Shown in pieces: positions 24,904 to 43,441 of a stretch of DNA of 52,623 nucleotides. Every line of letters starts with the position of its first letter. Position 1 is the stretch's first letter. A program made the translations under genes and the position numbers. Source of the stretch: a virus (taxonomy: Duplodnaviria > Caudoviricetes); the IMG/VR virus record IMGVR_UViG_3300044730_000687, positions 1-52,623 of that record. One strand, 5' to 3'. The notes beneath the pieces were generated by a model, which was not told where the DNA came from, ran no database searches, and saw nothing but the letters and a program-made list of their open reading frames with translations.

Positions 24904-25140
24904 CTACCACGCGCCAGCAGGACACGCAACCCGTCGCCTCCACGGTTCGCGCCTCGCCGGACTTCGCCAACACCCTGCCGCCGGATGAATGCACCTATCC
25001 CCAGTCCCCATCCATTCGCACGCCCTGCAAATCCGCTCCCACGACACCGGATCTCGCTCGCGACGCACGCCAGACCCCACCACGGCTCGGGAATCCTGCT
25101 TCTGCACAAGCCTTGCGGTCACGCGGAACGTCAGGCTCAT
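24904..25140 (-). CDS. Small Cys-rich protein (CxxC...C...C...CPxGxW)
   Basis: ATGA overlap with the large tail gene. Confidence 0.6.
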   Translation of the reverse strand: MSLTFRVTARLVQKQDSRAVVGSGVRRERDPVSWERICRACEWMGTGDRCIHPAAGCWRSPARREPWRRRVACPAGAW

Positions 25141-28100
25141 ACCAGCTCGATCTTGATGCTGGATGTTGCGGTGGCCAGCAACGTAATGCTCCACCTGTAC
25201 TCCGGGCCGGCAGTGCAACCGTTGGATGAATAGAACAAGTTTGAGTAACTATCGATTGCTGGTGCCGTAAAGCTGCTTCCTGCAATATCGCAAACTGTTT
25301 CTTCAAGCAGGTAGATTGGTGGAAACGTTAACCAATGACTTCCATCGATGGGCCATTTCTGCCCTGCACAATCCTCGGCAAGTCCGAAGTCGTCCGTTGG
25401 AACTCTTGCGATGATGCCGTGTCTTTTGATGATGCTTGTTAGAACTCGTGGATCTGATTCGAATTGATCTCTCCACGACTCTGGAATTGCGTTCACCAAG
25501 TCGTCGTCCATTGGTGCAAACCTGAACTTCACGGCATCTCGGCTTGTCGTCAAAATCCAATCCGATCCGTCGCACGTACCGTTTAGTAGTGCTGAGCTGA
25601 TTATTTCGTGCCCTCCACCTGCCGGCTCCCACGTCGCCGCGTCCAGAACCGGTTGCGGGATCGGGAACGCTGCATGTTCGTACCAAACTTCGCCCGGAGT
25701 TCCGCATGTCACGGGAGTTCCGTCCCCCGCCAGTGCCGTGATGCTTTCGTCGATGTCCGCCGTCGCGACCGCTTTCTCCGCGTTGCACGGAATCATCACG
25801 CGCACCGTATCGAGCGCATTGATCCCGTTCGCAAACTGATTGAACACGTATGCCATGGCTTCCGTGTTGGGCAATGGTCCGTGCCCCTCGCGGTTGTCCT
25901 GTGTGTCGGTCCAGACAAACGTGTTGAGCCAACGATTTCCAATGGCCTTCAGGCAGAACGATTGCCAAGTGAAGTCGAACAACGAGATTGTGCCTTCCTC
26001 GCACGCATAGTCCTTGGTTGTCTCGCCGTCCACGTAGCCCTCGCACATCGCCCGCAGGTAAAGCTCCATCTGGGCAAATGGATCGTGGTCGAAGTAGCTC
26101 TTGGCCGGACTTGTCGGTGTGTATCGGCCGTCTTGGTACGGTTCAGGAATCAGCTTGGTCAGTCGGAAAGTCGGATAGCACGTTGACCATGGAGCGTCAG
26201 TCAATGTCTCAAGACTTCCGTTGCTCGATTGATCGCCGATCTTGAACACCGGCACCTCTCCGGTTGACTGATACAGAATGTACTCGCGCAGTCCGTTCTC
26301 GATTGATCTGTACGGTTCGGCCTGCAATGCCGCCACGTCCCATCCGGTGCAATCCTCGTCAATCGTCGCGTCCGCCTCGTCGCAATGGTGCAGCCTGCTT
26401 TTCAGCGTCACCTTCAGGATCTCGTCATTGCCTGTGCCTTGCTCCCACTCGACCGATTCAATCTCTAGATCCGGTTCATAGATTCGGCATGACTTGTAAA
26501 AATTCGCCCTGTCCTCGATGCAAACCGTGTCCAGCGGATCGCACGTAATGCCGTTGGCGTTGAGGAACCCAAAGAAAGCCGATCCTCCCAGGTCCGCGTA
26601 GTTGTATCCCGAAGGACTCTCCGGATACCGGACCCTTCCGCTGGCAGTCTGGCCGAACGCGAAGTGTTTCCTGAGTGACGCATCCCCTCCGACGTCCAAT
26701 GCGTCAACGTGGCATCTGTTCTGGATCGGGAAGTAGTCTGCCACGACGGACGGTTTCCAGATTGAGTTTTCATCGTTTCGGAACGGTTTGAACTCGACGC
26801 CAAGAAGCCAGCGATTCGAGACGCCTCCGTAAGGTGCCGTCAGCCTGATCCCATCCGCCTCCCACGCTTCCCCGCTGTATTCGGTCGCACCCAACACCCC
26901 AAGGAACCGTTGACCGTTCGCGTACGTGGCCCCGTTGTAGACCGCGCCTGCCGCCGTCCTGCATTCGTACCAGACGCCCGGCAGGATGTCGCCCGACACG
27001 ATCCGGTCCACGGCAGGACCGATCCCGTCCCACGCATCCGGAGCCGCACCCGCAATCCCCGTCACGCGACGGCGGAACCACAGGATGCTCTTGCCGTCCT
27101 GCACCGCGTAGGCGTTCGGCGTCCAGAACTCTTGTCGTCGAATCAACCGCACGCACTTGGAGAACCTCCTGGCCGCGTCCCATATCGCGCTTCGGTTCAC
27201 GGCCGAATACTTCGGTTCGATGTCGCCCTTACCATTGATGTTCCAAAGACATCCCGTGTTGAAGTAGCCGTCCCCGATTTCCTTCGCGGCAGTCTCGTTT
27301 ATCCCGACGCCGTCCGGGGTTCCGGTGCTGGCCGATGCGACGCGCAGAAACACCGAGTAATCGTGGACGCTTGGCCTGTACCTCATCAGCTCAAGAAACT
27401 CGATATTGAGCAGTCCGTTTGCCCCTTCAAACACCAACGCGCTCGTCAGTCGGCAGTGAAGCCCTACCGGCGTAAAGTCCTCGGTTTCGATCCAGACGAC
27501 CGTATCCCCATCGCCTGCCGGTATCGTGATGGTCCGCCACGATTCGTTCTCGGTTCCGTGCTGCAACTCGATTGTCGCTGTGTTGAGCACTCGCACCCAT
27601 TGCACGCGATACCCAGCCAACACCGTCCCGCTTGCCCACGACTTCGTCAGCCCTCCGATGTTCCATGGAAGGTCCTGCCCGCTCACCGTGTTCTTCGTGG
27701 TCTCGACAAAAGGATAAGTCGCCGACACAAGCCCGCCCGTTTCGGTCCCGGCGGCCGGTGCGAGCCGATACTGCGTCGTGCAAAACCGATGGAAGTCGAA
27801 CGCATGACCAAGATGGTAATTCCGTTCCGCTCGTTGCCCCGTGCTACCTCGATACTCCCGCGCAAACGTGTTGAGCATTCGCGAAATCCCTTCCGCGTCC
27901 TGCTTCATCAGTCGCGTCTCGCCCGTGTACGGTCCTTCGACCCAATCCTGTGTGTTCAGAATGTCAATCGTCCCATCGTTCAGCACGACGTAATAGGCCC
28001 ACGGCAACGACACGATTGCCGCCACGTCGGTCGCGTTCTCACTGCAACTTCCGGAATAGGTCGTGGTGCTTCCGTCCGCCAGTGACGTGAACTTGAATAG

Positions 28101-28703
28101 GTAGTTTGCTTCCGCTGCATCCGCACAGTCTGACCCAAGCTCCGGAGTCGGCGCATACCCTCCGTAGCTGTTGCCATGCGGACTCGTGCGCGAGTTCCTT
28201 ATTCGCCAGTGCGCCCTGGCGGCGTTGAACGATGGCGACGCCATCCCGCCAGTGTCCGGGTCCCACGCGCCACGCTGTTGCTTCGCCAACTCCCACGCAT
28301 CGCCTGCCGTCGGTTCCGTCACGCTCCAAGGGAACTCCGCCAACCTCGTCGCTTCATCGTCCAGTCCATACGCCTCGGCCCCGAACACGAACGCATTCAT
28401 CACGCTCGCAAGGTTCGCCCCTTCCGCTTCCCCTGGTCCAGCTAATGGCCATTCGTACTCGGTTGGATCGACGTGCTGGTACACCTCGAAGAACTCGCCC
28501 ATGGACGGGAATGCTGTGCCTGCCTCGTCGCTGTTCCGCACCTGCCGAAACAGCGCGAACCAATAGAAGAAGACTCGCCACGGGCCATCGCCTAGCCCAC
28601 TGACGAGTCTATCGTTGAACGCCGACGCAAGCTTTGCGAACTGCTCGGCCGTTATCGGGTCGCCAGTCTCAACGGTCGGTGCCCGCGTGAAAGTGACGGA
28701 CAT
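25137..28703 (-). CDS. Large putative tail tip/virion protein (1188 aa)
   Basis: Size and position at the distal end of the tail module; no signal peptide; no family recognised. Confidence 0.75.
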   Translation of the reverse strand: MSVTFTRAPTVETGDPITAEQFAKLASAFNDRLVSGLGDGPWRVFFYWFALFRQVRNSDEAGTAFPSMGEFFEVYQHVDPTEYEWPLAGPGEAEGANLASVMNAFVFGAEAYGLDDEATRLAEFPWSVTEPTAGDAWELAKQQRGAWDPDTGGMASPSFNAARAHWRIRNSRTSPHGNSYGGYAPTPELGSDCADAAEANYLFKFTSLADGSTTTYSGSCSENATDVAAIVSLPWAYYVVLNDGTIDILNTQDWVEGPYTGETRLMKQDAEGISRMLNTFAREYRGSTGQRAERNYHLGHAFDFHRFCTTQYRLAPAAGTETGGLVSATYPFVETTKNTVSGQDLPWNIGGLTKSWASGTVLAGYRVQWVRVLNTATIELQHGTENESWRTITIPAGDGDTVVWIETEDFTPVGLHCRLTSALVFEGANGLLNIEFLELMRYRPSVHDYSVFLRVASASTGTPDGVGINETAAKEIGDGYFNTGCLWNINGKGDIEPKYSAVNRSAIWDAARRFSKCVRLIRRQEFWTPNAYAVQDGKSILWFRRRVTGIAGAAPDAWDGIGPAVDRIVSGDILPGVWYECRTAAGAVYNGATYANGQRFLGVLGATEYSGEAWEADGIRLTAPYGGVSNRWLLGVEFKPFRNDENSIWKPSVVADYFPIQNRCHVDALDVGGDASLRKHFAFGQTASGRVRYPESPSGYNYADLGGSAFFGFLNANGITCDPLDTVCIEDRANFYKSCRIYEPDLEIESVEWEQGTGNDEILKVTLKSRLHHCDEADATIDEDCTGWDVAALQAEPYRSIENGLREYILYQSTGEVPVFKIGDQSSNGSLETLTDAPWSTCYPTFRLTKLIPEPYQDGRYTPTSPAKSYFDHDPFAQMELYLRAMCEGYVDGETTKDYACEEGTISLFDFTWQSFCLKAIGNRWLNTFVWTDTQDNREGHGPLPNTEAMAYVFNQFANGINALDTVRVMIPCNAEKAVATADIDESITALAGDGTPVTCGTPGEVWYEHAAFPIPQPVLDAATWEPAGGGHEIISSALLNGTCDGSDWILTTSRDAVKFRFAPMDDDLVNAIPESWRDQFESDPRVLTSIIKRHGIIARVPTDDFGLAEDCAGQKWPIDGSHWLTFPPIYLLEETVCDIAGSSFTAPAIDSYSNLFYSSNGCTAGPEYRWSITLLATATSSIKIELV

Positions 28704-28706
28704 GCC

Positions 28707-29078
28707 TCACACCTGCGAAATCCAGAATTGAACCGCGACGGCTGCCGTATTCGCCCTTCCGTACAGACTTGCCGAAGGAACGCCGGCAAGCTGGCAGAAC
28801 TCCCCGGCCGCAAGCTTCGACAGCAAATGCGAGTTTCCGCTGTCCTTGAAAATCTCCACGTAGTTCGTCGAGTCCAAGTTCTTGATCGTGATGTGGACGT
28901 CGCCAGTGATGTCGGTCGTGTTGAAGCTCAACGCCTCGTTCGACGTTCCGATTGCTTGGGTCGTGGTCCCCATGTACGTGCCGGCCATGTCGCTGGTCTT
29001 GGACAGTGTTCCGGTGCTGATTGCGGCTCCGCCTTTCGATACAGTGAACGCCGCTGACCGTGTGAATTCGTTTGCCAT
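28707..29078 (-). CDS. Small beta-rich virion protein
   Basis: IKNLDSTNYVEI...L.AGE pattern; tail module. Confidence 0.75.
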   Translation of the reverse strand: MANEFTRSAAFTVSKGGAAISTGTLSKTSDMAGTYMGTTTQAIGTSNEALSFNTTDITGDVHITIKNLDSTNYVEIFKDSGNSHLLSKLAAGEFCQLAGVPSASLYGRANTAAVAVQFWISQV

Positions 29079-29096
29079 ATTGTGCCTTGATCGTTG

Positions 29097-29297
29097 TTAG
29101 CCCCACCTTGGAATCGTGCTGCTCGCACTCGTTGCCGGTTGCTGTTTCGTGTTACGCAACGCCCTTACCACCGTTCCGCGTGTCGTCGTGTCGGTCAGTG
29201 TCGTTGACGTTCGAGCTACCGTCGTCCGCATTCCGACGGCCTGTTGCAACTCGCGAATCGCTCGCGGAAACTTTCCGGTGCCTTTGATGTCTTCCAT
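29097..29297 (-). CDS. Hypothetical tail-module protein
   Basis: Position in the tail module. Confidence 0.55.
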   Translation of the reverse strand: MEDIKGTGKFPRAIRELQQAVGMRTTVARTSTTLTDTTTRGTVVRALRNTKQQPATSASSTIPRWG

Positions 29298-29300
29298 AGA

Positions 29301-30200: not shown

Positions 30201-30201
30201 G

Positions 30202-31332
30202 TTACCTCCAGCTCGTTTCCATCACGCTGGCAATTCGTCGATTCAGGTCGAGGCTTTGCTGCGCCACGTCCAGTTGCCTTCGTTGCACGTCAAGATTCGA
30301 TTGTGCGCCCCCTATGAAAAGGCCGATCCGTTGAAGCGCATCACTCGCCGGTCTTGCTGCCGCCTGTGACGCCGTCGCACCACCACCGCGCAACCCTTCC
30401 ACGTCAGCGGAACGTCCCGCCCTGGCTCTCCGTTCGGCCCTGGTTCGCGCTCGGTCCTGTTCGTCGTTCCGCTGCATTTGCTGGACGGCTTCGTCCGTGC
30501 TGTCCAATGCGCCTCGCGTTCCTCCAAGCCCCTTGTAGAACTCGGGATCTTTTCTCGCGTCGTAAGCCGTGATTGCCCCTTGGATGATTCGCTCGGTGAA
30601 GTTGACGCCTTTCTCCCACATTGAAATGACGCTTCCAACGACGCCAGCAAACCCGGCCTTCGCCTTTGCTGCCAGAATTCCAAACCTGTCGCCAACGTCG
30701 TCCAGTTGCTCGATCACTTCCGAGTCAATAATCGTCCCGAAGTCCACGGCTTCCTGTGCCAGCCCTGAGAACCCTTCGCGCAACATTGGGAGAACCTCGG
30801 ACCCCGACCTGCCAAGCAAAGCCATTGCCGCGCTCAACTCGGTCGCGTTGCCTGTCCCGTTCTCGATTGCGTTGCCAACCCGCACCCACAAGTCTTCCGC
30901 GTTCATGCTGCGAAGTTCTTGGACCGATATGCCAAGCTTTCGAAACGCATTCGCATCTTCGCCGCCACGATTCCCGACCGCCGCAACCTGCGACCGTTGC
31001 AGTTCACGAAACGCCGCCGTCGAAGCCCTCAGCGATGTCCCGGTTTTCTCGCCAGCGTACGCCAGCTTCTGCATGAAGTCGGTCGAAGCTCCGACCCGCT
31101 GGCTCATGTCGTTGATGCTCGATCCAAACTCAACAACCGACCGCACTTGATTCGCGAGGTAATCGACCGAGAACACCGCTGCCATTTGGGCTCCAATCCC
31201 GCGAATTGCGCTTGCCGGCAACTCGTTGATTGCCTTCCGGATCTTCCCAATCTCTCCGACCGCAGCCCTGGCAGCCGCGCCAAACCCCTCGTCGTTCCCA
31301 CGGAATCCTACTGTGAATTGCTCGTCAGACAC
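30202..31332 (-). CDS. Tail tape measure protein (short, 376 aa)
   Basis: Helical Ala/Gly-rich; MQKLAYAGEKTG, AFRKLGIS..EL, ALLGRSGSEVLPML. Confidence 0.85.
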   Translation of the reverse strand: MSDEQFTVGFRGNDEGFGAAARAAVGEIGKIRKAINELPASAIRGIGAQMAAVFSVDYLANQVRSVVEFGSSINDMSQRVGASTDFMQKLAYAGEKTGTSLRASTAAFRELQRSQVAAVGNRGGEDANAFRKLGISVQELRSMNAEDLWVRVGNAIENGTGNATELSAAMALLGRSGSEVLPMLREGFSGLAQEAVDFGTIIDSEVIEQLDDVGDRFGILAAKAKAGFAGVVGSVISMWEKGVNFTERIIQGAITAYDARKDPEFYKGLGGTRGALDSTDEAVQQMQRNDEQDRARTRAERRARAGRSADVEGLRGGGATASQAAARPASDALQRIGLFIGGAQSNLDVQRRQLDVAQQSLDLNRRIASVMETSWR

Positions 31333-31951: not shown

Positions 31952-31953
31952 GA

Positions 31954-32400
31954 TCAGGTCACCACAGCCAATGATGCCGGGGTGTCGCCATGCCTGGACA
32001 GCGGAAGCGTCAACTCCCAGTAGCCTCCCGCCTCGCCATTCAGCGAACCGCCGCCGTCGTAGTTCCACGTCCCATTGATTAGCGTCCCGTTCGTGCTGTC
32101 GAAGTTCGCCAGCGTCACGATTCCAAGCATGGTCGGAAACTGCCCAAGCTTCAGAGCTTCGGCCATCGTCGGGCTCCCGGCCGTCATCTGCACCAACGCC
32201 CGAATCGTGATCTTGTGCTTTCGATCACGCCCGGTTCGCGTCTTGGTGTAACCGTACGAATTGCGCGCCTCGTCAATCGTGAACTCGTCACTCAGACCAA
32301 AGCCTTGCGGGTCCGTCACGGTCGTGGCGCTTCCCGTGAAAGCCAGCGTTGAACCGTCGATTCCGTATGCGGCTACTACGCCTGTCATTACCTTTGCCAT
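31954..32400 (-). CDS. Putative major tail (tube) protein
   Basis: Thr/Gly-rich beta protein in the canonical position. Confidence 0.65.
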   Translation of the reverse strand: MAKVMTGVVAAYGIDGSTLAFTGSATTVTDPQGFGLSDEFTIDEARNSYGYTKTRTGRDRKHKITIRALVQMTAGSPTMAEALKLGQFPTMLGIVTLANFDSTNGTLINGTWNYDGGGSLNGEAGGYWELTLPLSRHGDTPASLAVVT

Positions 32401-32881: not shown

Positions 32882-33149
32882 GGTTTGCCTCCTTCACGTC
32901 CTTGGCGTCTTGAAGGTCGCCGTTCAACAGGCTCCGGAACGATCCGCATGCCGCACCAATTAGCGCCGCGATCAAAATTGCCAAATCGTAGGCGTATTGC
33001 ACGGGATGCTGAACCATGGCGTTGAACCGTTCCGCTCCCACTTGGGACAACCATGCCGTTACGACGGCTGACAAAGCAATCCCCTCATACGTGATCAGCG
33101 TCAGAACCGCCCACTGCCATCGATTGACGAAGTTTCCTAAGGCTTTCAT
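32871..33149 (-). CDS. Holin-like membrane protein
   Basis: 92 aa, two hydrophobic segments, charged C-terminus. Confidence 0.6.
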   Translation of the reverse strand: MKALGNFVNRWQWAVLTLITYEGIALSAVVTAWLSQVGAERFNAMVQHPVQYAYDLAILIAALIGAACGSFRSLLNGDLQDAKDVKEANRGT

Positions 33150-33763
33150 GTCGCGTATGGGGTCCCGTCGTTGTCTTCCTGCGCTTCTCCAAGCTTGTGC
33201 GGAGCCACCTTTTCGACGACCCCAAACATCCGCAGGATCTTCCCGTCTCTGTTTTTGCTGACGTAGGTGTGGGCCTTCGCGATGAATCGCTCGCCGGTCT
33301 TTCTGTTGTGAACTCTGTAGGTTTCAAGCCACGGCATGCTTCCATTCAATGCGGCTCGCCAGTTGTTTGCTACCCGACTTCGCTCCTTGGCCCCTTCCAT
33401 TCCCTCAAGCCATCCGTTTCCGAGCATGCTGTGCGCGTCGAGACCGAACATGTCCGCAAGTGTTCTCGAAACGTACACGCAGTTCCCAATCTGGTCGCAT
33501 TCAAACGTTGCATCTCCTCCGCAGAAGTCAGCCCTGACTCGCTGGCCATCGCGCAACACCACGAGATCATCCTCAATAGCTGTAACCCGATCGGGAAGCG
33601 TCATGCCGCCGCTGCCAATGATCGCACTGTGAATCGCCGTCAGTTTCCGAATGCTGCTCCAAACCCATACAGCGGCACCTCCGACAACAGGATAGACAGA
33701 CACCACAACGAACTGCTTTACAAGCTCGGAACCGAATGCGTGCTGTAGAAATTCGGCGATCAT
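33146..33763 (-). CDS. Membrane-anchored PAS-domain protein
   Basis: TM helix, GSGGMTLPDRVTAIE linker, then FECDQIGNCVYVS..LADMFG...LGNGW...RV..NW..AL...YRV...RDGKILRMFGVV (PAS_3/PAS_4-like). Confidence 0.85.
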   Translation of the reverse strand: MIAEFLQHAFGSELVKQFVVVSVYPVVGGAAVWVWSSIRKLTAIHSAIIGSGGMTLPDRVTAIEDDLVVLRDGQRVRADFCGGDATFECDQIGNCVYVSRTLADMFGLDAHSMLGNGWLEGMEGAKERSRVANNWRAALNGSMPWLETYRVHNRKTGERFIAKAHTYVSKNRDGKILRMFGVVEKVAPHKLGEAQEDNDGTPYAT

Positions 33764-33782: not shown

Positions 33783-34115
33783 TTACTCGCGAGTCAGGTT
33801 GCGAACTACAACGGTGAGAACGTTCTCCAACCGTGCAATTCGTTCGTCGCGCGTTCCTGTTCCAAAATCCCGAACGACCCTCCGTTGCTTTTCCAGTCGG
33901 GTATTGTCGTCGCGATTATCCTCCTCCTTTTTGAGTTGGGCCAATTCTTCAGGCAGCAACTCCCTTCCGCCAATCCAAAGCCACGTTGTGCCGTTGTATG
34001 AACAATTGGAAACAACCCACGTCGGACAATCAATATAGCCGTCCGGTGGAACATCTCCGCTGTAAATCTGTGTGGAGATGACTAGCGAGTCCTTGAGCAG
34101 CGCGGAGTTTTTCAT
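33783..34115 (-). CDS. Hypothetical protein (possible fibre chaperone)
   Basis: Coupled to the GH gene; C-terminal RIARLE coiled coil. Confidence 0.6.
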   Translation of the reverse strand: MKNSALLKDSLVISTQIYSGDVPPDGYIDCPTWVVSNCSYNGTTWLWIGGRELLPEELAQLKKEEDNRDDNTRLEKQRRVVRDFGTGTRDERIARLENVLTVVVRNLTRE

Positions 34116-37100
34116 GGTGCGTTAAGTGTCCCGATGGTCGCCGTCCCGATGGTCGCGTTCGGCGGAGTCGACGCAACTCCGTTCGTGACTGCGAATGTGA
34201 TTCCAGAAAGCTCTCCGGTGTTCCCATACTTGTCTCGCGCCTGCACATCTAGCCGATAGACTCCGTTGACCAGATTCGTGAACTCCGCGACTGTACCCTC
34301 GGCCCAGTTTTCCCATGGAGCAGATGGGCCGAGCCGGAATCGGCTCAACACGTTGCTCCTGTAGAGCGGAGTGTTCATCACCGTGTCGTCTAACGCGGTC
34401 CATTTGATGAACGTGTCAGTCAGCCCTTCTCCGTTCAGTGCGGACAGCGGGTACGAGTCCATAGTGATGACTGGCGGATTTGTGTCAGCCCGCGACGCGA
34501 CAACCGCATTGGTCAGCAGAGCAAACATAGCGGCAGGACTGATGGTGCGGCTGACGAGGTACGTGGCCACGCGCCCAATCGGGATGGCTGCGCTGTTGCT
34601 TGTCAGCAGATTCCCGAATACGTCAAGCTGGCCGAAGTTCGTGCTGCCCAGCGTCAAGCTTCGGTTCGTTTTGTCTTGGGTCCAGATGATTGCGGTAGTG
34701 AGATTGCTTTTGCCGAAAACGTAGCAGTCGGTTTTCGGTATGTTGGTCACCGAGGCAGTGTACGAAGGCGGGTCTATCAGCCTCTTGAATTGGAGCATCG
34801 CAGCAAGCTGTGGCCGCGCTTCATCGTAGAAATCCCACACAGGGGAGCTGGTGTCGATTGCTCCGCCGCGAATGTAGGAGCTGTATCGGGCGTCGTAGTA
34901 GTACACCCCCGCAAACCCATGACCCAAGCTGCGAGCCAGCACCGCCAAGGCACGCATCGTCGTGTTGTAACCAGCCCTGTCCATAACCTCGTGCCGAAGC
35001 ATTTCGTACGTCCACGCAGCTCCGGTCTGAATTCCGACATTGTATGTCCGGCAAGGACCGTTGTCGTAGACGCCGGATTCCGAGTTGTACACAGGTTTCC
35101 CGTAGTTGATCCCAAGTTGCTGCCACTGCTGATACCTGGGTCGATCCGTAACGTCGTCATTCATCAACATGACGACGTTGCCGCCTGCCGGGTAGAGATG
35201 GCACGACAGCCCGTGGACGTTGGAGAGTGTGTTCGACGGAAGGATGCCGAGAAACCCGTGAGCGACGTTCGTGTCAGCCATGCCGCCGCATGTCACGTAC
35301 AGCGCCCCGGGATAGGCTGCGTGTAGCGCATTCTCTTCTGTTATGGCGATGTCGCGCAGATTCGCTGCGGTCAGGGTCGAGTGTGGCTCATTCCGCATCT
35401 CATAAAATGCGATTCGGTCAGTGTACCGGCCGGCCACTCGATTAATGTAATCCCAAAGAAGGTTTGTGTGGACCATCGCGCCGCTGGAGACGGCGAATGC
35501 AGGTATCTCAGCATTCGTCCACAAAGTCATCCAGATGTCCTGTTCGTCGTGAGCGCCAACTCGCCAGTCGGTTGACTCGAACGTGAAATTGTTGTCTGTC
35601 GCCTCGATGCTCGTCCATCGCGCATACCCGCCAGGGGACAGAGTTCGGGTCCCGCGAAATCCAAGGACCTTGTTTGTCGCCACCGCGTCTTCGGCAGTCT
35701 GGCTGTGAATGTGGACAATCCCGTTGGTTGCGTCGCTCGACCAGACCTTCGCGAACATAGTCTCGTCCTGTTCTGGATGAGACGTTGACCTGCTCACGAC
35801 TCGGTAGTGGCCGAATTGAATCCACGGAGGAAAAGTGATTGTGTTGGTGGCCTTTCCGGGTGGCACTGACCCATTGAACTCGCCGCTGAAAATGGGCACT
35901 CCGAACTGATGGTTCGTCTGCCCGTAGGCGATGTAAGACCAGTTGAAATTTGAGGAACTCGAACCGTAGTTGTACGTGACGAGATCCATCGACACGGTCT
36001 CGTTGTCGAACCACAGATTGCCATTTCTCGGTGTGGTGAGAACAAACTCTACCCCGTGCTTTGGAGCCCACGGTGTGGCGGTTGCCCCCTCCTCAAGTTG
36101 GACGTCGTCGATGTAAAATGAGGTAAGCGTGACCGATTCGATCGTGAGCTGCCACTCAGCCGTGGGGCGGTCGCTTGCCCAAAAATTCGTCTGGAACCGC
36201 ACCCAGTTCGTGGTCCCCGGTGCGGTCCAATTCCATGAGTACCCCACGTTCGTTGTGCTGGCCGGAACGTAGCGATTCGTCCAAGCCAATGACGTCATCC
36301 TCGCAGTCACCGTTGACGCCAAGGCTTTGGCGTAAAAGCTCAACGTGTACTGACGAGTTCCAGGTCGCAGCTTGATAGGGCTGTTGTAGATCGCGAACCG
36401 AGCTTTACTGTCATTGATCCATGCAATCGTTGATCCAGTCACCGCGTTGTTGGTCGTTGCTACATTCGACTTCAAGAACGTAGGCTTGAAGAGATTGCTG
36501 TCGGTCTGCGAGTTTCTCGCATACATCCAGCGTGGCTGCCAACCCAGCTCAAACGAAGCGTTGCCAAGTTTGTTTCCATGGATGGCGTTGGTCTGAACTG
36601 GAGGCACCGAGTAATCGTAGAATGCGTCCATGTAGGCCGCCGTGCCGATCGGGTCAGTCGTTGCCGGTGCGGCGACGTTGGTGTTTGACGATAGCGCGAA
36701 CGCCTCAAGATAGAAGTCGTGGGCTTGGCTGGGTGCAGCGAGCCACGTAAACCGTACCTGGGCGTTGGTGAACTCCGTGGTCGCGACGTAATTGGTTCCG
36801 ACGTAGCCGGTGGCCTGGCTGAAATCTATGTTCGCCCAAGCGTTTGTTCCCAAGCGAAACTCCGCCACCCCCAGTGTGTTCGGTGGCTGAAAGTTTCGTG
36901 TCCAGGCTTTTAGGAAGGCCCTGTACGTCCCCGGCCCGCCCGACGGCCCGTCGATCGTTGCGGTTACATTCGTGGTCGCAGATGTGGTCCGGAAATACCA
37001 CGAGCCATACGTGAGGTTGACGTCCGACTTGGACCAGTTTGTGTTCTGCTGAGATAGGTCAAAGTCATCCTTCGTCCAGATCCGCAAGCCTGGAATCTGG

Positions 37101-37147
37101 GCCAGACATGAGACCGATGCGAACAGGATTGCAAGAAATAGCTTCAT
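34112..37147 (-). CDS. Signal-peptide-bearing clan GH-A glycoside hydrolase with CBM-like and Ig-like domains
   Basis: MKLFLAILFASVSCLA/Q; NASFE..YTLSFYAK..IDDVQLEEG (CBM4/9-like); YEMRNEP and PVYNSESG catalytic-like motifs. Confidence 0.82.
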   Translation of the reverse strand: MKLFLAILFASVSCLAQIPGLRIWTKDDFDLSQQNTNWSKSDVNLTYGSWYFRTTSATTNVTATIDGPSGGPGTYRAFLKAWTRNFQPPNTLGVAEFRLGTNAWANIDFSQATGYVGTNYVATTEFTNAQVRFTWLAAPSQAHDFYLEAFALSSNTNVAAPATTDPIGTAAYMDAFYDYSVPPVQTNAIHGNKLGNASFELGWQPRWMYARNSQTDSNLFKPTFLKSNVATTNNAVTGSTIAWINDSKARFAIYNSPIKLRPGTRQYTLSFYAKALASTVTARMTSLAWTNRYVPASTTNVGYSWNWTAPGTTNWVRFQTNFWASDRPTAEWQLTIESVTLTSFYIDDVQLEEGATATPWAPKHGVEFVLTTPRNGNLWFDNETVSMDLVTYNYGSSSSNFNWSYIAYGQTNHQFGVPIFSGEFNGSVPPGKATNTITFPPWIQFGHYRVVSRSTSHPEQDETMFAKVWSSDATNGIVHIHSQTAEDAVATNKVLGFRGTRTLSPGGYARWTSIEATDNNFTFESTDWRVGAHDEQDIWMTLWTNAEIPAFAVSSGAMVHTNLLWDYINRVAGRYTDRIAFYEMRNEPHSTLTAANLRDIAITEENALHAAYPGALYVTCGGMADTNVAHGFLGILPSNTLSNVHGLSCHLYPAGGNVVMLMNDDVTDRPRYQQWQQLGINYGKPVYNSESGVYDNGPCRTYNVGIQTGAAWTYEMLRHEVMDRAGYNTTMRALAVLARSLGHGFAGVYYYDARYSSYIRGGAIDTSSPVWDFYDEARPQLAAMLQFKRLIDPPSYTASVTNIPKTDCYVFGKSNLTTAIIWTQDKTNRSLTLGSTNFGQLDVFGNLLTSNSAAIPIGRVATYLVSRTISPAAMFALLTNAVVASRADTNPPVITMDSYPLSALNGEGLTDTFIKWTALDDTVMNTPLYRSNVLSRFRLGPSAPWENWAEGTVAEFTNLVNGVYRLDVQARDKYGNTGELSGITFAVTNGVASTPPNATIGTATIGTLNAP

Positions 37148-40100
37148 TTGTACTGGACAGCAATCTCGTTGAGAGTCGTATCCAGCGATGTCGAACCCGA
37201 AATGACCGCATTCCGCACCGACGCGCCAGCCGCCAAGCCCCAGGGAATATTCGATGAGTTCGTTACAACCGCCACATCATTGTGGTAGCCGATCATATTT
37301 GTGCCGTTAACATGGACACCAAGCTTGTACCACGTGCTTGGTGTGTACGTGATTCCGGTGTCCACCCACGTAACGCCCACGCTGTTCGAGACGCAGCCAA
37401 ACGCCCACGTCACCGCACCGCTGGCGATGTTCGTTTGGTGAATCCAGCCTGCAAACGTCGCTGGACGATTTGTGTCGCCCGTAGCCAGAGAATTGAATCC
37501 AACCTGGAGTGAGTAAATATTGGTCAGTACATTGCCAGATGTTTTGTCCGGCGTACGAATATCAGCGCCGAAGAACAACTGGTTAGTGCTGTTCTGCGTT
37601 GGGATTGCAAACGCACGATTGTCATACCAGCCAAAACACGGCGCTTGATTCGTGTTCTGCGCCCGCATGATGCGAATGCCTTGCCGGCCCGCACCGTTAG
37701 TCGCGCTGGTGTATTGGAACGATCCGCCATTGTTGGCACCGCTCGATCCCATATCACCGGATGTGACCGCCGTATTCAGGTTGAACAAATCATCAACGAA
37801 TAACTGTGATCCACCGATGATGCCTGTCACGAACATCTGAGGCGCGACACTTTCGAGTCGTTCATACACAGCACGCTCAGTCGCGACGTTAGTGCTGCTT
37901 TCCCAGCTTGGCCCGTACGGGTTGTACGAAACGATAAAGTTCGTAACCACGAGGCTGCTCATGATCACGTCTGCAAACGTGGCAGTGCCCGTGAAGGTCG
38001 GCGATGCGATGGTCGAGTACGTTGCGGCGGCGTCGTTGGAGCGAAGGATTGAGGATGGGATTCGGAGAGCGTCAATCGTTCCGGTGAGCAACGTTGCATC
38101 AACCGCCGTTATGTTGGCCGCGCTTGTTCCGTTCGTTCGAACGAAGCTGATGGAGGCCGAGTTGACTAGGTTGGAAACTGCGTTCGTCGCGCTCCCGATT
38201 GTGATGTAACCGGAACCTCCGCCTCCGCTTCCGCTCGCCGTAATCATGATCTTCTTATTCGAAGCGTCGTAGGCGAGACTAATGTTGTTTGACGAAACGA
38301 TTGAGTTCGTGAGCGCAGCCCACTGAACATCAGCAAAGTCGCTGATCGTCGAAGCAGTCTGCGTTCCCGTGTGATTTGCCCTGGAAATCAATGCTTGATA
38401 GGCTGCCGTCGTTAGCTTGTTCGTCCCCAAGCTGCTTGCAACAACCGAGTAGGTATAGTTCGATCCGCTTGTATTCCCCTCGATTTCCGATCCGTCGAGA
38501 AGGTTTAGCGTCGTCTTTTGAACTCCTTCGACCCACAGGGCCGTTCCGTTCGTTGGGCCGCCTCCTCCGCCTCCCGTAATCCCCATCGCGTTGTAAAGGT
38601 TTGCCAGCGTCATGCCGATACCTTCGCGAACTCCGGTTGATGGGTCGGCGGCGAATCCGTAGACGTGCGTCAGTGTGCCGGTGGAAGCCAGCACAGACAG
38701 AGGGCGCTCGAAGTAAATCCCGTTGTTCGTCCCGAAGTGCGCGAGGTTGTTTGCTCCCTTCTGGATCGTCAGCATCGCGTCCGCGTTTGCCTTCAAGACG
38801 AAAGCCTGCGTTGATCCGATTGCCCCTCCGGTAATCAGTCCGTTGAAGTTTGAGAGGACGTTTCCGAGCTTCACGGCTCCAGTTAACTCAGAGAAGCCAG
38901 CCACGTTCAGCCCGTTCGTGATGCTCAGCGAACCGTAAAGCGTGCCGCCGTAGTCCGGCAGGTACGGGTACACGTATCGCGTCCAGGCTGAATTGCGGTA
39001 GGTGAACGTGTCCTCTGTGCCAGCGCGAATCACTGTGTTGATGCCAGTGAACGTGACGGTGTTGGTGCCGGTGTTTCGGATCGTCAGCGTCGTGCCTGGG
39101 TACGTAAACCCGCCAACGCTGAACGTCATGTTGCTGGATCCTGTGATCTCCACCCGACTCGGCAGCAGGTCGCCGGGAATTGAAAGGTTTGTCGTCGCGC
39201 CCGAGACCGTGAAGTTGGTGGTGATAACCGAAAGCGCCGGCTGACTCTGCGTCCAAAGCTTAATCGGGACATTCGCGGGAAGCTCGTAGTCGCTGGCAAT
39301 GTCGGTCGGCGCGGAGTGGATCTCCCAATCGCGGACCAAGGAATTGGTCAGGCTCAAAGCCTTACCACTGTCCGATGTGATGGCGTTGTCCCGCCACCGG
39401 AACCCATAGAGCGTGGTGCCATTCGTGTCACGCAAAGCCCATGTCCCGCCCGTAAAGTCCTGGTAGAAGTAATTGCGGGTGACCGACAGAGCGCTGTGCT
39501 GGCCCGGTCCAAGGGCGATCGGGTTCTGAGTGAATACCTCAAAGTAATTGTGGTCGATGCTGTTGTTGATTTGACCTGAACCAACAACGCCTTCCGGATA
39601 AATTCCGTAGCGCAGACTCTGAAAAACATTCGCTGTGAAGTCGTGGTTTGCCACGCCCCCTTTCCAACGAATACCGATCGCATTGGTAAATCCTGGCGAC
39701 TCAAACTTGTTCCGAAAGATTGAATTTGCTGTCGCTGAAACACCATTAAGATCCAGCCCGATGTCAGAGTTGTTTATGAATGTGTTGAAGGTGATCAGAT
39801 GTCCGTAGTTCTGATTGCCAGTCAGCAACACGCCAACGCCGTTCGCCCTGTAGAAGTCATTTCCAACGATCTTGAACTCCGTCGAATTGTTGATGGTCAG
39901 GATGTTTGTCGCGGTGTTGTTCGCGTCGAACCAAAGATTTTCGATGGTGACGTGCCGCATCGTGTGAAGCGTGAACATCGTCGATGCTGACGTGCCGCGA
40001 ATGATGGACCGAAGCCCCGGCTGGCCTCGCAACGCCAATCCACCAACGAGCCCGGTTCCCGTGAAGCTTACGCTCGAAACCAGAATCGTCCCAACCGGGA

Positions 40101-40503
40101 ACTCAAGCGTCGGGACGTTGTTGGAGTAACAGTAGTTGATCGCGGCTTGCACTCCTGCCGTTCCGTCTGTCGATCCGTCGCTCGCAACTCCAAACCATTC
40201 GGCGCGTTGAGGAATAGCAAGCCTGTCAGCCGAGACCCACTTACCTGAAACTGATCTGTTCGTTAGGTAGTGAACACCGTCGTGCGACTGTGTTGCGGAT
40301 GGATCGTTCCGAAATGTTCGCGGTTGGCTGAATGGGACGGTTGCGCTGTAATTCCTGACTTGAATCTCCTCGCCAACAACGGGGCGTCTGGAGGTCAAGT
40401 CGGCAATCGTCGCGACGCTGTTAACTGGATTCATCTGCTGGCCAAAAGCCGCGATTGAAACGCACGCGCACAGCAGGCTAAGGAGTAGTGTCTGGATTCT
40501 CAT
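37144..40503 (-). CDS. Signal-peptide-bearing tail spike/fibre with a pectin-lyase-like beta-helix
   Basis: MRIQTLLLSLLCACVSIAAFG/Q; WFGVASDGSTDGTAGVQAAIN..LEFPVGT; fibre motifs RANHTGTQTASTISDF and ASPTFTGT. Confidence 0.85.
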   Translation of the reverse strand: MRIQTLLLSLLCACVSIAAFGQQMNPVNSVATIADLTSRRPVVGEEIQVRNYSATVPFSQPRTFRNDPSATQSHDGVHYLTNRSVSGKWVSADRLAIPQRAEWFGVASDGSTDGTAGVQAAINYCYSNNVPTLEFPVGTILVSSVSFTGTGLVGGLALRGQPGLRSIIRGTSASTMFTLHTMRHVTIENLWFDANNTATNILTINNSTEFKIVGNDFYRANGVGVLLTGNQNYGHLITFNTFINNSDIGLDLNGVSATANSIFRNKFESPGFTNAIGIRWKGGVANHDFTANVFQSLRYGIYPEGVVGSGQINNSIDHNYFEVFTQNPIALGPGQHSALSVTRNYFYQDFTGGTWALRDTNGTTLYGFRWRDNAITSDSGKALSLTNSLVRDWEIHSAPTDIASDYELPANVPIKLWTQSQPALSVITTNFTVSGATTNLSIPGDLLPSRVEITGSSNMTFSVGGFTYPGTTLTIRNTGTNTVTFTGINTVIRAGTEDTFTYRNSAWTRYVYPYLPDYGGTLYGSLSITNGLNVAGFSELTGAVKLGNVLSNFNGLITGGAIGSTQAFVLKANADAMLTIQKGANNLAHFGTNNGIYFERPLSVLASTGTLTHVYGFAADPSTGVREGIGMTLANLYNAMGITGGGGGGPTNGTALWVEGVQKTTLNLLDGSEIEGNTSGSNYTYSVVASSLGTNKLTTAAYQALISRANHTGTQTASTISDFADVQWAALTNSIVSSNNISLAYDASNKKIMITASGSGGGGSGYITIGSATNAVSNLVNSASISFVRTNGTSAANITAVDATLLTGTIDALRIPSSILRSNDAAATYSTIASPTFTGTATFADVIMSSLVVTNFIVSYNPYGPSWESSTNVATERAVYERLESVAPQMFVTGIIGGSQLFVDDLFNLNTAVTSGDMGSSGANNGGSFQYTSATNGAGRQGIRIMRAQNTNQAPCFGWYDNRAFAIPTQNSTNQLFFGADIRTPDKTSGNVLTNIYSLQVGFNSLATGDTNRPATFAGWIHQTNIASGAVTWAFGCVSNSVGVTWVDTGITYTPSTWYKLGVHVNGTNMIGYHNDVAVVTNSSNIPWGLAAGASVRNAVISGSTSLDTTLNEIAVQYK

Positions 40504-40991
40504 TGTCGTCGCGTGTAGACCAATCCTGCCGCGTTCACGATGTAGTTGTCCCCATCGTCGGTCCCGGTGTCACCCTTGTTCTCCCACCAGCCGTAATCCT
40601 CGTTTGTTTCGGACTCGCGCACCCAGATTAGGTCGTACGTTTTACGGTTTAGTCGGACCTCTGCGACTGTTTCGAAATATCCAATCACAGCATCTGCCTC
40701 CGTTACGGTTGTGAGAATGTCTTCCAATACCGCATCTTCATCTGGCATCGCCATGTATGCCACGTTTCGCACTGCACCAACTCGGCACTCGAATCGGTAC
40801 AGTCCAGGCACAAGATAAAATCCTGCCGGCACAATACCGCCAGCGCCAGTCGTGAACCACAGCTCTTGCCCCATTACGACGCCATTGGTCGTTTTGTGCG
40901 GGTAGTACAACCTCTGCAACAACACTTCCTTGCCAACGAGAGCCGCCTCTTGCTGGTCCAGAACATGCCCTGACAGTAGGTACTTTGCCAT
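40500..40991 (-). CDS. Putative spike anchor/adapter protein
   Basis: Transthyretin-like N-terminus; C-terminal FETVAEVR...TDDGDNYIVNAAG..Y.R resembling tailspike N-terminal domains. Confidence 0.6.
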   Translation of the reverse strand: MAKYLLSGHVLDQQEAALVGKEVLLQRLYYPHKTTNGVVMGQELWFTTGAGGIVPAGFYLVPGLYRFECRVGAVRNVAYMAMPDEDAVLEDILTTVTEADAVIGYFETVAEVRLNRKTYDLIWVRESETNEDYGWWENKGDTGTDDGDNYIVNAAGLVYTRRQ

Positions 40992-40994
40992 GCG

Positions 40995-41585
40995 TCACGC
41001 CTTCTTCAGTCGCCAGTCTTTGTAGTAGTCCGCAAGTGCAATTCTGAACCGCTTCACGATGCTGGCCTTTTCCGGAATGCTTCGGGGCCATGGAGCTTGA
41101 TTCACTCCTTTGGACAGTAGGTAGTATTTCACAAGGCTACGTCCCTTCTTGCCTGCAAGGAATGCTTCCCCACGCACCCGCAGAATGAAAAGCTTTATGC
41201 CGAGTTGCTTCTCCAAGTCTCGCGCTCTTGTGCCATGCGCGTCCGGATGCGTCGGGATCGTCAAGGCCCTGGCTCGCACCGGAACAATCGGTCCGCCATT
41301 GATCTTCTGACGAATGCGCGTGTCCCGCACCATTACGGTCACGACGCCGTTTTTGATCTTGGGCTGGGCTTCGACCGAGTTCGAAATCTGCCGCCAGAAG
41401 TGAGTCCTGATGCTCCCCGCGCTGTAGAACGAATTCGGCTCGGCCGCGTCCTTCCGATTCCAGAACAGCTTGAGCATCGCAATGACCGCTTGCCCGGCCC
41501 TGCGGAGCGCAGCGGTTCTCCGTTGCGGACTCGCCATGTCGCGAAGCCGTTCCGTGACCTTGTTCGGTTTGACGTGAAGCTTCAT
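40995..41585 (-). CDS. Mu gpG-like virion morphogenesis/tail completion protein
   Basis: Basic; GGPIVPVRARALTIP motif. Confidence 0.7.
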   Translation of the reverse strand: MKLHVKPNKVTERLRDMASPQRRTAALRRAGQAVIAMLKLFWNRKDAAEPNSFYSAGSIRTHFWRQISNSVEAQPKIKNGVVTVMVRDTRIRQKINGGPIVPVRARALTIPTHPDAHGTRARDLEKQLGIKLFILRVRGEAFLAGKKGRSLVKYYLLSKGVNQAPWPRSIPEKASIVKRFRIALADYYKDWRLKKA

Positions 41586-42355
41586 TTCATCACGCCGCGA
41601 ATCACGCCACGCGCAATCTCGTAACCGGGTCCCAAGTCCTTCAACAACTGTTGCGCCAATTTCTCGTCCTTCATCACGTTCGACTGCGGAGGTTCCATCG
41701 GCGGAATGCGCCTTGCCGATTGGGTTGCTGGGAAGCGAAGTCCAAGCTTCTCGCCTCGCGCACGCGCCATTCGTCGAACGCTCATTCCAGAGTTGTAATC
41801 GAACGGTGGGTAAGGCGTCCCGAACGCACTGATCGTTTTCCAAATCTTGTCGTTCACCGGAGCCACCATCTTGCCCTGGCGCAAAGCACGCCCAGCTTCC
41901 TGCCATCGCGTAGGCCAATCCCTCGGTTCCTGCCGCAATTCCTTTCGGTACATTTCCCAGAACGGATACTCGTCTAGCGCCTTTTGCGCGTCCACGAACT
42001 GACCGTATCCACGCGCCATGTCCACGTTCGTTCGCACAATCAAATCCAGTCGCGCCGTGCTCGTCAGGTCTTGGATCGTGCCTTCCTTACCTTTCGGTGC
42101 CTTGTACCGCGAACGCTCCACCGTCTCGCGCAACTTCTCGCGTGCCGCGAACGGAGAAATTTTCTTGTTCAACACGCCAAGCGTTACATCTCGGATCGCT
42201 TCGAGGATCTTGCCATTGCTGACTTTTGCGCTGAACACGGCCTGTTGCCGGATGCTCGTTCGTATCTCGCCAAGTTCTTGCGATGAAAGCTTCGTCTTCA
42301 GCAGCCCGACTGCTTCCATCTTCTTGACTGCAACTTGGAGCGTTCGGCTTGCCAT
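41582..42355 (-). CDS. Mu gpF/SPP1 gp7-like head morphogenesis protein
   Basis: AVFSAKV, RLDLIVRTNV..ARGYGQ, PYPPFDYNS. Confidence 0.85.
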   Translation of the reverse strand: MASRTLQVAVKKMEAVGLLKTKLSSQELGEIRTSIRQQAVFSAKVSNGKILEAIRDVTLGVLNKKISPFAAREKLRETVERSRYKAPKGKEGTIQDLTSTARLDLIVRTNVDMARGYGQFVDAQKALDEYPFWEMYRKELRQEPRDWPTRWQEAGRALRQGKMVAPVNDKIWKTISAFGTPYPPFDYNSGMSVRRMARARGEKLGLRFPATQSARRIPPMEPPQSNVMKDEKLAQQLLKDLGPGYEIARGVIRGVMK

Positions 42356-42357
42356 AC

Positions 42358-42843
42358 TCAGATTGCGCTTCCTTCCTGATCGGCTCGCGTCATCTCGGCC
42401 ACTTCGCTCGTCGCCTCGTTGCTGTACTCCATCGGGTACACCGGCCCGTCGTCGTCCTCCGGATTGTCGCTTACAGGAATCTCTGGCCCTTTGCCTTCCG
42501 CGATGTCGCGCAACGTGCGCTCCGCCTGTTCCCACGTCGCCTTTCGGACACCGCTCGCGTCCATCACTTCCCCAAAGCTTCGCCCCATGATGCGCCAGCA
42601 AATGATTGCTAGGGCCACTTCCTTCATGCTCGCCGGCAGTGTCCCGGCCGGTCCCATGCTGTTGGAGTTTCGCTTGTAGGCCGCGATGTATCCACGCACG
42701 TACTCGACAACGTTCGTCGTGATGCCGGCCACAGGGTCCACCTCGGTCCCGTACTTTGCCGCGTTTCGGTACGCCTCAAGCTCGCGCCCGGCCAAAACGG
42801 TGCGGATGTCGGCTTCGCTAATCGTTGTCCAAGTCGCTGCCAT
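42358..42843 (-). CDS. DUF1320 / Mu gp36-like head-tail adaptor
   Basis: VRGYI...LPASMKEVALAI...A.R.L.DIAEGK. Confidence 0.8.
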   Translation of the reverse strand: MAATWTTISEADIRTVLAGRELEAYRNAAKYGTEVDPVAGITTNVVEYVRGYIAAYKRNSNSMGPAGTLPASMKEVALAIICWRIMGRSFGEVMDASGVRKATWEQAERTLRDIAEGKGPEIPVSDNPEDDDGPVYPMEYSNEATSEVAEMTRADQEGSAI

Positions 42844-42864
42844 CGTGTGTCCGTTCGTTTTAAC

Positions 42865-42897
42865 AAAAATGGGGCGACACCCTACGGCATCGCCCCA
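42865..42897 (-). terminator. Rho-independent terminator after the capsid block
   Basis: TGGGGCGA...TCGCCCCA plus TTTTT. Confidence 0.8.
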
Positions 42898-42937
42898 CAA
42901 CCCTATCCCAACCCACAGCTATCTCAGGCGAAGCGCG

Positions 42938-43441
42938 TCACTGGATTGTCGGACCGACAAGAGTCTGCCACGGCGGCTTTGCCGAAATTGTGACCGTGAT
43001 GTTCGTCGCGATGTTCGTCGCTGCGTTGCCGTATCGGTTGAACAGAAGGTAACGAGCACTTCCGACGTTGATGTTGGTGCACCAAGTGCGAAGCAAGGCT
43101 CCATCAATCGAGATACTCAACGTGGTGAAGGCCGTGGTCTCGAACGTGGTTCCGTCGATGCTTCGATGAATCGGAATCGTCAACGCTGCCGATGCGTTTG
43201 TGGAAACGTTCCGTGCGCTGATCTGGACGAAAAGATCGTCCTGCTTCCGAACATCCACGATTTCCGTATTGGTCGCCGTGGTACTGGCCGCAATGCTCGT
43301 CGGCACGTTGACCAGCGGTGCCGTGGTGCTCTGCGAGAGCGACGTGGTGGGAGCCTGAGCCATGACGGCCATCGGCAACACAAGCGCCAACACGAAAGCC
43401 CATGCCCCCGTGAACGCCATCGAAAGTTTGCGAGTGCTCAT
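42938..43441 (-). CDS. Signal-peptide-bearing capsid-decoration-like protein
   Basis: MSTRKLSMAFTGAWAFVLALVLPMAVMA/Q; SIDGTTF..ARYL jelly-roll-like pattern; lies before the capsid-block terminator. Confidence 0.7.
   Translation of the reverse strand: MSTRKLSMAFTGAWAFVLALVLPMAVMAQAPTTSLSQSTTAPLVNVPTSIAASTTATNTEIVDVRKQDDLFVQISARNVSTNASAALTIPIHRSIDGTTFETTAFTTLSISIDGALLRTWCTNINVGSARYLLFNRYGNAATNIATNITVTISAKPPWQTLVGPTIQ

Follow-up and report, generated by a model that had tools for sequence, protein, structure and literature searches.

The window analysed here is the whole of a viral contig of 52,623 nucleotides, IMG/VR record IMGVR_UViG_3300044730_000687 (Duplodnaviria; Caudoviricetes), in which nearly all genes lie on the minus strand. 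Alongside a replication module and a set of head and tail genes, it encodes a glycoside hydrolase (GH), a protein which we refer to as the spike, and a small protein directly downstream of the capsid gene (about 139 aa after signal-peptide removal), all three predicted to be exported. We examined the dipeptide Thr-Asn (TN, as distinct from the reverse order, NT) in these proteins, in their homologues and in genomes of the presumed host phylum, Verrucomicrobiota. Signal peptides were called by eye and with our own heuristic for the n-, h- and c-regions, not with SignalP, and are predicted throughout; by this heuristic the phage proteins have the basic n-region, the hydrophobic h-region and the small residues at -3 and -1 of Sec signal peptides, and the signal peptide is kept in every GH and spike homologue listed from our first searches. 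Expected numbers of TN were calculated from each protein's own composition, with 5000 composition-preserving shuffles for each window protein, and ratios are given as observed over expected.

We found that the exported phage proteins (GH, spike and capsid-adjacent) carry TN at 2.2-3.2 times chance. The GH has 26 TN and 8 NT (8.4 TN expected, z = 6.8) and the spike 25 TN and 8 NT (11.4 TN expected, z = 4.5); in neither case did any of the 5000 shuffles reach the observed count. In both proteins TN is the strongest outlier among all dipeptides and NT is at or below expectation. The original prediction, made from the sequence of this window, had counted TN by hand in these two proteins (with NT for the GH), in the capsid-adjacent protein, in the 2147 ORF and in a large tail protein, had described the excess as directional, and had proposed shuffling as a control; its counts were reproduced exactly, and both the enrichment and its direction survive the shuffles. 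The two small proteins show a weaker effect, with 5 TN and 1 NT in the capsid-adjacent protein (P = 0.010) and 4 TN and 1 NT in open reading frame (ORF) 2147-2701(-) (P = 0.017). The same prediction had confined the excess to proteins with signal peptides, which agrees with what we observe elsewhere in the window: the tail protein, which serves as an internal control, has no TN and 7 NT where 4.0 TN are expected (Poisson chance of zero, about 0.02), and the 36 further ORFs together have 22 TN (0.86 times the 25.6 expected) and 18 NT. However, the signal-peptide-like protein at 382-849 has no TN where about one is expected, and a statement that all exported proteins carry the excess would therefore be too strong for the small ones.

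The TN signal resides in the protein and not in the DNA. Apart from its raw count, nothing favours reading the corresponding DNA word, ACNAAY (RTTNGT on the other strand), as a methylation, restriction or packaging site. Across the GH and spike genes the word occurs 51 times in frame, 3 times and not at all in the other two frames, and 9 times on the opposite strand; Thr and Asn codons inside TN are chosen as they are elsewhere in the two genes; and the excess holds in viral contigs with a GC content from 0.41 to 0.64. We accordingly rejected a DNA-level motif, to which we give next to no credence. GC skew is flat across 34-40 kb, which probably reflects the Thr- and Asn-rich composition of the encoded proteins.

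Table 1. Features of the window. Predicted cleavage sites are marked by a slash.
Feature	Position	Strand	Remarks
Exported GH, 1011 aa	34112..37147	-	Predicted signal peptide residues 1-16 (nt 37100-37147), cleavage guess ..CLA/Q
Exported spike, 1119 aa	37144..40503	-	Predicted signal peptide residues 1-21 (nt 40441-40503), ..AFG/QQ
Capsid-adjacent protein, 167 aa	42938..43441	-	Predicted signal peptide residues 1-28 (nt 43358-43441), ..VMA/QA
Small protein, weak signal-peptide-like N-terminus	2147..2629	-	Counted as ORF 2147-2701(-); no clean signal peptide by heuristic
Tail protein, 1188 aa	25137..28703	-	No signal peptide; internal control
155-aa protein	382-849	-	Signal peptide; C-terminal hydrophobic anchor followed by basic residues
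Major capsid protein, HK97-type	43486-44421	-	phrog_1005, E = 2.5e-30
Head protease	44926-46107		
Portal	46104-47639		
Large terminase	47795-49198		
Tape-measure-like protein	30202-31332		
205-aa protein with N-terminal hydrophobic segment and PAS domain	33146-33763	-	PF08447, E = 1.7e-8
Two PAPS-reductase-like proteins (one with DUF3440) and a pentapeptide-repeat/DUF5758 protein	5126-6421, 15158-16033, 13061-13678	-	Replication region

Close homologues of the GH (five full-length; a sixth match is truncated and identical to the window protein) and of the spike (eight) all have a signal peptide and a two- to threefold TN excess. The spike homologues have a common N-terminal part and differ downstream of it, and the excess is present in all of them, including C-terminal parts that are not homologous to the window spike. 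Among the close GH homologues, Thr and Asn inside TN are kept at frequencies of 0.83 and 0.85, whereas other Thr and Asn residues are kept at 0.62 and 0.67. A full scan of 1.84 billion representative sequences yielded 232 GH relatives, of which the 149 listed contain 1755 TN and 829 NT in total (802 TN expected). These relatives have a two-peaked distribution: most are TN-rich (2.3-4.1 times expectation), and a few of similar similarity are TN-poor (0-0.5 times). In an alignment of 36 distant GH sequences, 692 TN fall in 226 columns; 114 columns are singletons and four are common to 20-23 sequences, which are columns where the TN-poor relatives have unrelated residues. Despite this turnover of columns, the number of TN per distant homologue is steady at 16-33. 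Thus the fold does not need TN, and old sites are conserved while new ones keep arising; the retention seen in close homologues, together with the many singleton columns, likewise indicates that sites are both kept and replaced. This suggests that selection maintains the TN motif in exported proteins.

Pooling 85 TN-rich proteins (mostly GH-family homologues, with spike homologues and the two window proteins), we counted 1810 TN where 615 were expected, a ratio of 2.94, whereas NT stands at 0.98, SN at 1.10 and the next-highest dipeptide at 1.82. The sequon proposed in the original prediction, (T/S)-N, must accordingly be narrowed to T-N. TN-rich GH relatives occur in four viral contigs (L131, L230, L231 and L232, which span the GC range given above), where the excess is found in the GH homologue and in signal-peptide proteins encoded close to it; the remaining ORFs, among them large tail proteins with no signal peptide, are neutral. 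At 28 of the best 30 GH-family loci in 401 Verrucomicrobiota genomes, the longest ORF shows no clear excess (0-1.9 times expectation, on small counts). A further 48 metagenome loci, fetched with a generic pattern, are distant (21-31% identity) and have TN totals per locus near expectation, and a search of the GH alignment against genome contigs returned no relative.

The structural model of the GH (pLDDT 85) comprises beta-sandwich domains, a TIM barrel and C-terminal beta domains. Its best match in the PDB is a GH39 enzyme, 5jvk (TM score 0.72 on the target); Pfam matches to GH10 and Y_Y_Y are weak and below cut-off. Across 41 sequences N586-E587 and E690 are invariant and P588 is nearly so. 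With its modelled (beta/alpha)8 barrel, the acid/base Glu of an N-E-P motif and a nucleophile Glu, the protein appears to belong to clan GH-A and is a predicted hydrolase. TN is in excess in all three parts of the model (N-terminal beta 3.2, TIM barrel 2.6, C-terminal beta 2.9); the equal excess in the barrel, together with the TN-poor homologues, rules out a requirement of the fold or of beta-sandwiches. The phage-type GH homologues (window 34112-34200; P0002-P0041) end in a conserved tail, ..N.ATVGTL.I.., which the TN-poor relatives lack and which could be a trimerisation, attachment or sorting strand. The spike has a conserved N-terminal part, a beta-helix region at about residues 130-350 (PF13229, Beta_helix, is recorded on two of its homologues) and a variable C-terminal part, but its model (pLDDT 47) is too poor for TN sites to be placed on it, and only residues 100-350 and 980-1119 are moderately confident.

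Sequence context around TN was examined at 1687 sites in 80 non-redundant TN-rich proteins. At the second position after Asn (+2), Lys (0.06 times background), Arg (0.21), Asp (0.46) and Glu (0.51) are depleted; Gln (0.87), Ser (0.95) and Thr (1.19) are near background, and Val, Leu and Ile are raised. Hydrophobic residues follow TN at both +2 and +3, and Pro directly after Asn is reduced to 0.37. None of this pattern surrounds NT, SN or TD sites. In host genomes, Lys or Arg occupies +2 of TN at a frequency of 0.03 in exported proteins (background 0.09) and of 0.11 at cytoplasmic TN sites (background 0.12). Because Lys and Arg are rare at +2 while Gln, Ser and Thr are tolerated, the pattern looks like exclusion of charge and not plain burial; this and the exclusion of Pro at +1 look like the specificity of an enzyme or of a binding protein. 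As read from these sequences, the motif is T-N-x-Z, in which Z is not Lys or Arg, is rarely acidic and is often Val, Leu or Ile, and it is tied to one lineage and one cellular compartment.

A link to Verrucomicrobiota is provided by the capsid protein, homologues of which (42-48% identity) occur in 32 of the 401 genomes, which represent the phylum of G002, a metagenome-assembled genome (MAG) titled Limisphaerales. They lie inside long contigs in up to four copies per genome, and we read them as belonging to related prophages. Among cultured phage records, the capsid protein had no match and the terminase only distant relatives (<60% identity). Across 20 stretches downstream of capsid homologues, signal-peptide proteins have 135 TN (2.17 times the 62.3 expected) and 64 NT (1.03 times), and cytoplasmic proteins of the same stretches have TN at 1.06. 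In three of the putative prophages (L255, L259 and L250), small TN-rich signal-peptide proteins adjoin the capsid homologue, as the capsid-adjacent protein does in the window. One genome, G208, has capsid homologues at 698 kb, 2.58 Mb, 2.95 Mb and 3.39 Mb of contig G208:C1; no large TN-rich exported proteins were found in the 20 kb downstream of capsid homologues in this genome, so some copies may be other elements or remnants.

We calculated TN ratios in the signal-peptide proteins of random samples of 110-200 kb per genome. The ratio is 1.69 in G115, 1.60 in G208 and 1.48 in G002; 1.41 in G001, which is not significant; 1.08 in G022, 1.00 in G004 (Luteolibacter), 0.97 in G202 and 0.68 in G410 (Opitutales); and, outside the phylum, 0.55 in 50 kb of E. 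coli and 0.43 in a deltaproteobacterial MAG. A Fimbriimonas sample (G406, GC 0.70) was excluded because the gene caller gave an implausible composition. The values for Luteolibacter, Opitutales and G202 rule out a bias of the whole phylum or of whole secretomes. Cytoplasmic proteins of the sampled genomes have TN at 0.57-1.12 throughout; the comparison of secreted and cytoplasmic proteomes, which had been proposed together with the shuffling control, thus finds no excess inside the cell. In several Verrucomicrobiota genomes the asymmetry is in fact reversed there (TN 0.57-0.83, NT 0.96-1.23). In a comparison directed at class-level placement, the 16S sequences of G208, G202 and G022 are only 80-82% identical to the named Verrucomicrobiae loci; no 16S was recovered from G115 or G103. 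G208 and G202 each consist of a single contig and may be isolates.

The TN-rich host proteins have a common C-terminus, which ends in [F/L]-[F/Y]-R-[V/L/I]. Among signal-peptide proteins of G208, G115 and G002, the 16 with this C-terminal motif have 175 TN where 81.9 are expected (2.14 times, P = 3e-19; NT 0.95), whereas the 95 without it have 80 where 69.0 are expected (1.16 times). We replicated this in G022, G103 and G322 with proteins chosen by coordinates only from the list of domain hits: all 20 are above expectation, with 335 TN where 131.1 are expected (2.55 times; NT 0.85), and the ratio is still 2.36 after removal of the last 110 aa. In a set of 18 host domain proteins, TN is the lone outlier among dipeptides (z = 10.7; next dipeptide 4.3), and it stands at 4.4 times expectation within the last 110 aa and at 1.85 times without them. 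TN is thus the only strong dipeptide outlier in three sets, namely the two phage proteins, the 85 TN-rich proteins and the 18 host domain proteins. The excess marks one secreted class with a particular C-terminal domain and not the whole secretome; the original prediction, which had ascribed a similar bias to Pedosphaera/Limisphaera-type secreted proteins, holds for this class (2-2.5 times) and fails as a statement about the secretome at large.

The domain itself spans about 70 aa, with the pattern G..Y.L..S.[N/D]L....W ... TN ... F-Y-R-[V/L] running to the very end of the protein (alignment A5). Neither Pfam (18 domain sequences, E <= 1) nor NCBIfam (eight whole proteins) has a model that matches it. 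The proteins that bear it are otherwise unrelated and include GH10, subtilase, PIG-L deacetylase, cyclophilin, Big_9 and PKD/CBM enzymes and adhesins; a TSP3-like Asp-rich repeat often precedes it (examples of the domain are L283:11356-11685(+), L269:18971-19300(+) and L137:4468-4797(-)). A profile of the domain finds 83, 48, 31, 20 and 9 copies in five genomes with a capsid homologue and none in Luteolibacter, Opitutales, G001, LP2A or the deltaproteobacterial MAG, a distribution that looks like that of a protein-sorting tag. With a cut-off of E <= 1e-12, 8 of 10 genomes that have a capsid homologue also have the domain, as does 1 of 10 without, the genomes not being phylogenetically independent. 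The exported phage proteins (GH, spike and capsid-adjacent) do not carry this FYRV-type domain, and two TN-rich GH relatives have the host-type C-terminus.

Several known systems resemble parts of this pattern. N-glycosylation by PglB/STT3 uses the sequon (D/E)-X-N-X-(S/T). As in that system, TN places an Asn in a short motif of exported proteins with adjacent Pro disfavoured; however, TN sites are not enriched in Ser (0.95) or Thr (1.19) at N+2 and have no acidic residue at N-2 (Asp 0.92, Glu 0.51). The C-terminal domains of type IX secretion are small and beta-rich and are appended to many unrelated secreted enzymes and adhesins of Bacteroidota. The FYRV-type domain is also small, beta-rich, C-terminal and found on many unrelated secreted enzymes and adhesins, but it has no match to Por_Secre_tail/TIGR04183 (Pfam, 18 domains; NCBIfam, eight proteins), belongs to a different phylum and has the conserved FYRV motif at its very end. 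The general O-glycosylation sequon of Bacteroidota is D-(S/T)-(A/I/L/V/M/T) (PMC8550257, PMC8729774, PMC12871550). This too is a short, phylum-specific motif of non-cytoplasmic proteins, with a hydroxyl residue beside a fixed residue and a hydrophobic preference nearby. Compared with the sequon as given there, TN has Asn after Thr and its hydrophobic preference two positions further on; Asp is not enriched at -1 of the Thr (0.92 at the 1687 sites); Ser does not replace Thr, as the pooled SN and TN ratios show; and the excess, known here from sequences alone, is limited to one class of secreted proteins. Both canonical N-glycosylation and the Bacteroidota O-sequon were rejected, as TN sites lack the features they require.

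PEP-CTERM/exosortase cargo provides a further parallel: as described by Haft et al. 2006 (PMC1569441), it is a secreted class with a C-terminal tag that was first noted in Verrucomicrobia and has many members in each genome, and its enrichment in Thr, Ser and Asn, which the host class has in common with it, is called suggestive of glycosylation. That paper reports composition only, with no dipeptide or order effect. The host tag differs in being a folded domain of about 70 aa that has F-Y-R-V at its end and lacks the PEP motif, the membrane helix and the Arg cluster, and a scan of the TN-rich host proteins with NCBIfam and Pfam matched no PEP-CTERM model. The C-termini of the phage proteins (..IGTLNAP and ..IAVQYK) and of the TN-rich host proteins (..FYRVxxx) are accordingly not of the PEP-CTERM type. 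A full-text literature search, at the level of abstracts, returned no earlier report of a Thr-Asn signature.

As the motif is absent from same-fold relatives elsewhere and from cytoplasmic proteins of the same genomes, yet conserved and renewed in exported proteins of host and phage, an extracytoplasmic reader would explain it most simply, and we infer that some trans-acting factor reads TN. Under the explanation that we rank first, though tentatively, this factor would be a modifying enzyme. In the hosts, a large set of secreted enzymes and adhesins with a common C-terminal domain has T-N-x-Z at 2-2.5 times chance; a host factor outside the cytoplasm would read it, and phage proteins with the motif would then be treated in the same way as surface and extracellular proteins of the host itself. 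Such a reader would most likely modify proteins enzymatically, and O-glycosylation of Thr is the foremost candidate reaction; that it is a glycosyltransferase is speculative. A number of observations weigh against such an enzyme. To our knowledge, so strong a preference for Thr over Ser is unusual for bacterial O-glycosylation. If periplasmic glycosylation were general, it ought to affect every exported protein, yet those that have a signal peptide but not the domain are near neutral (1.16), and a structural or sorting function would explain the 4.4-fold excess inside the domain no less well than a sugar site would. TN in the GH model often lies just before the start of a strand or helix, where Thr and Asn are ordinary capping residues. 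STT3/PglB (PF02516) has no match in any of five host genomes (G115, G208, G002, G022 and G202), some of which may be incomplete, although the same model finds matches in four archaea used as positive controls. PMT-type GT-C proteins (PF02366), which occur in three of five TN-positive and three of five control genomes and in neither G208 nor G002, were rejected as the reader, and no glycosyltransferase family was matched by Pfam among the 40 phage ORFs scanned. Finally, gene calls, signal peptides and the C-terminal motif all derive from our own heuristics, and the effective number of context sites is smaller than 1687 because many are homologous columns counted repeatedly.

The capping observation leads to a doubtful but serious alternative, in which no outside reader exists and Thr-Asn is simply the preferred strand or helix cap in the Thr/Asn-rich, charge-poor extracellular proteins of this lineage. 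Thr (about 9%) and Asn (about 6.7%) are indeed abundant in the class, most TN sites of the GH model are in coil (15 of 26, with 6 in strand and 5 in helix), often directly ahead of a strand or helix, and hydrophobic residues occupy +2 and +3; TN is densest in a folded domain, at conserved positions, and Ser sometimes stands in for Thr at conserved columns. The physics of folding does not differ between compartments or lineages, however, and yet cytoplasmic proteins of the same genomes have no excess (0.57-1.04), while same-fold homologues elsewhere range from 0 to 1.9 times expectation with unrelated residues at the TN columns. A strict strand-start (N-cap) test on the GH model found no enrichment (6 of 26 TN sites, compared with 21% of all positions), and the barring of Lys at +2 (0.06) alongside tolerance of Gln, Ser and Thr is not what burial predicts. 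It seems to us unlikely that TN is a distributed signal for export or quality control, recognised by a periplasmic chaperone or by an outer-membrane secretion route that also reads the FYRV-type domain, and thereby marks cargo that must cross the outer membrane. Such a signal would account for the restriction of the excess to the C-terminal-domain class, with other signal-peptide proteins nearly free of it, for its peak in the domain itself, for the tag-like 9-83 copies per genome and for the co-occurrence of domain and capsid homologue. Against it, the phage proteins have the motif while lacking the domain, no secretion system is known to rely on a dipeptide scattered over the entire cargo protein, and we identified no machinery for it.

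Quite improbable, in our view, is that phage and host proteins have exchanged the TN-rich segments as homologous modules, with their composition inherited by descent and no selection on the dipeptide. Some TN columns are conserved across the GH family, and the two TN-rich GH relatives with a host-type C-terminus do indicate family ties between phage and host proteins. Yet the excess spans unrelated families (GH, beta-helix spike, small proteins, and host GH10, subtilase, PIG-L deacetylase, cyclophilin and Big_9) and reaches into C-terminal parts of spike homologues that are not homologous; singletons make up half of the TN columns; and the expectations already take account of each protein's own composition. 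If a modifying enzyme is indeed the reader, the most far-reaching form of that reading would be a new covalent modification system, most simply glycosylation, with the sequon Thr-Asn-x-(non-basic), present in part of the Verrucomicrobiota and coupled to the FYRV-type sorting domain; phages would export the GH and spike via Sec so that these proteins are modified in the same way and either function or become part of the particle outside the cytoplasm. We consider it unlikely that this proposal holds in full.

Few bacterial groups are known in which short motifs label exported proteins as targets of modification. The two-residue signature described here, whose statistical weight is very high, singles out together a class of secreted proteins in a little-studied phylum, an unannotated C-terminal domain and the exported proteins of phages that infect these bacteria. 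TN sites and the FYRV tail may thus provide a testable handle for finding a new modification or secretion route, and the signature, as a marker that requires only sequence, could help to assign phages to Verrucomicrobiota hosts. It also raises the question of why a tailed phage would place Sec-exported enzymes amid its structural genes.

Other features of the window merit mention. The PAS-domain protein is encoded beside the exported GH and within the structural gene block, an unusual location in a tailed phage. The PAPS-reductase-like and pentapeptide-repeat/DUF5758 genes of the replication region are candidate DNA-modification or anti-defence genes, and no integrase family was matched by Pfam among the 40 ORFs scanned. 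In most of the phage exported proteins (Table 1), and in homologues P0002-P0014, Gln directly follows the predicted cleavage site, which recalls the pyroglutamate 'Q-rule' described for Bacteroidota; the host signal peptides that we examined mostly have no Gln at this position.

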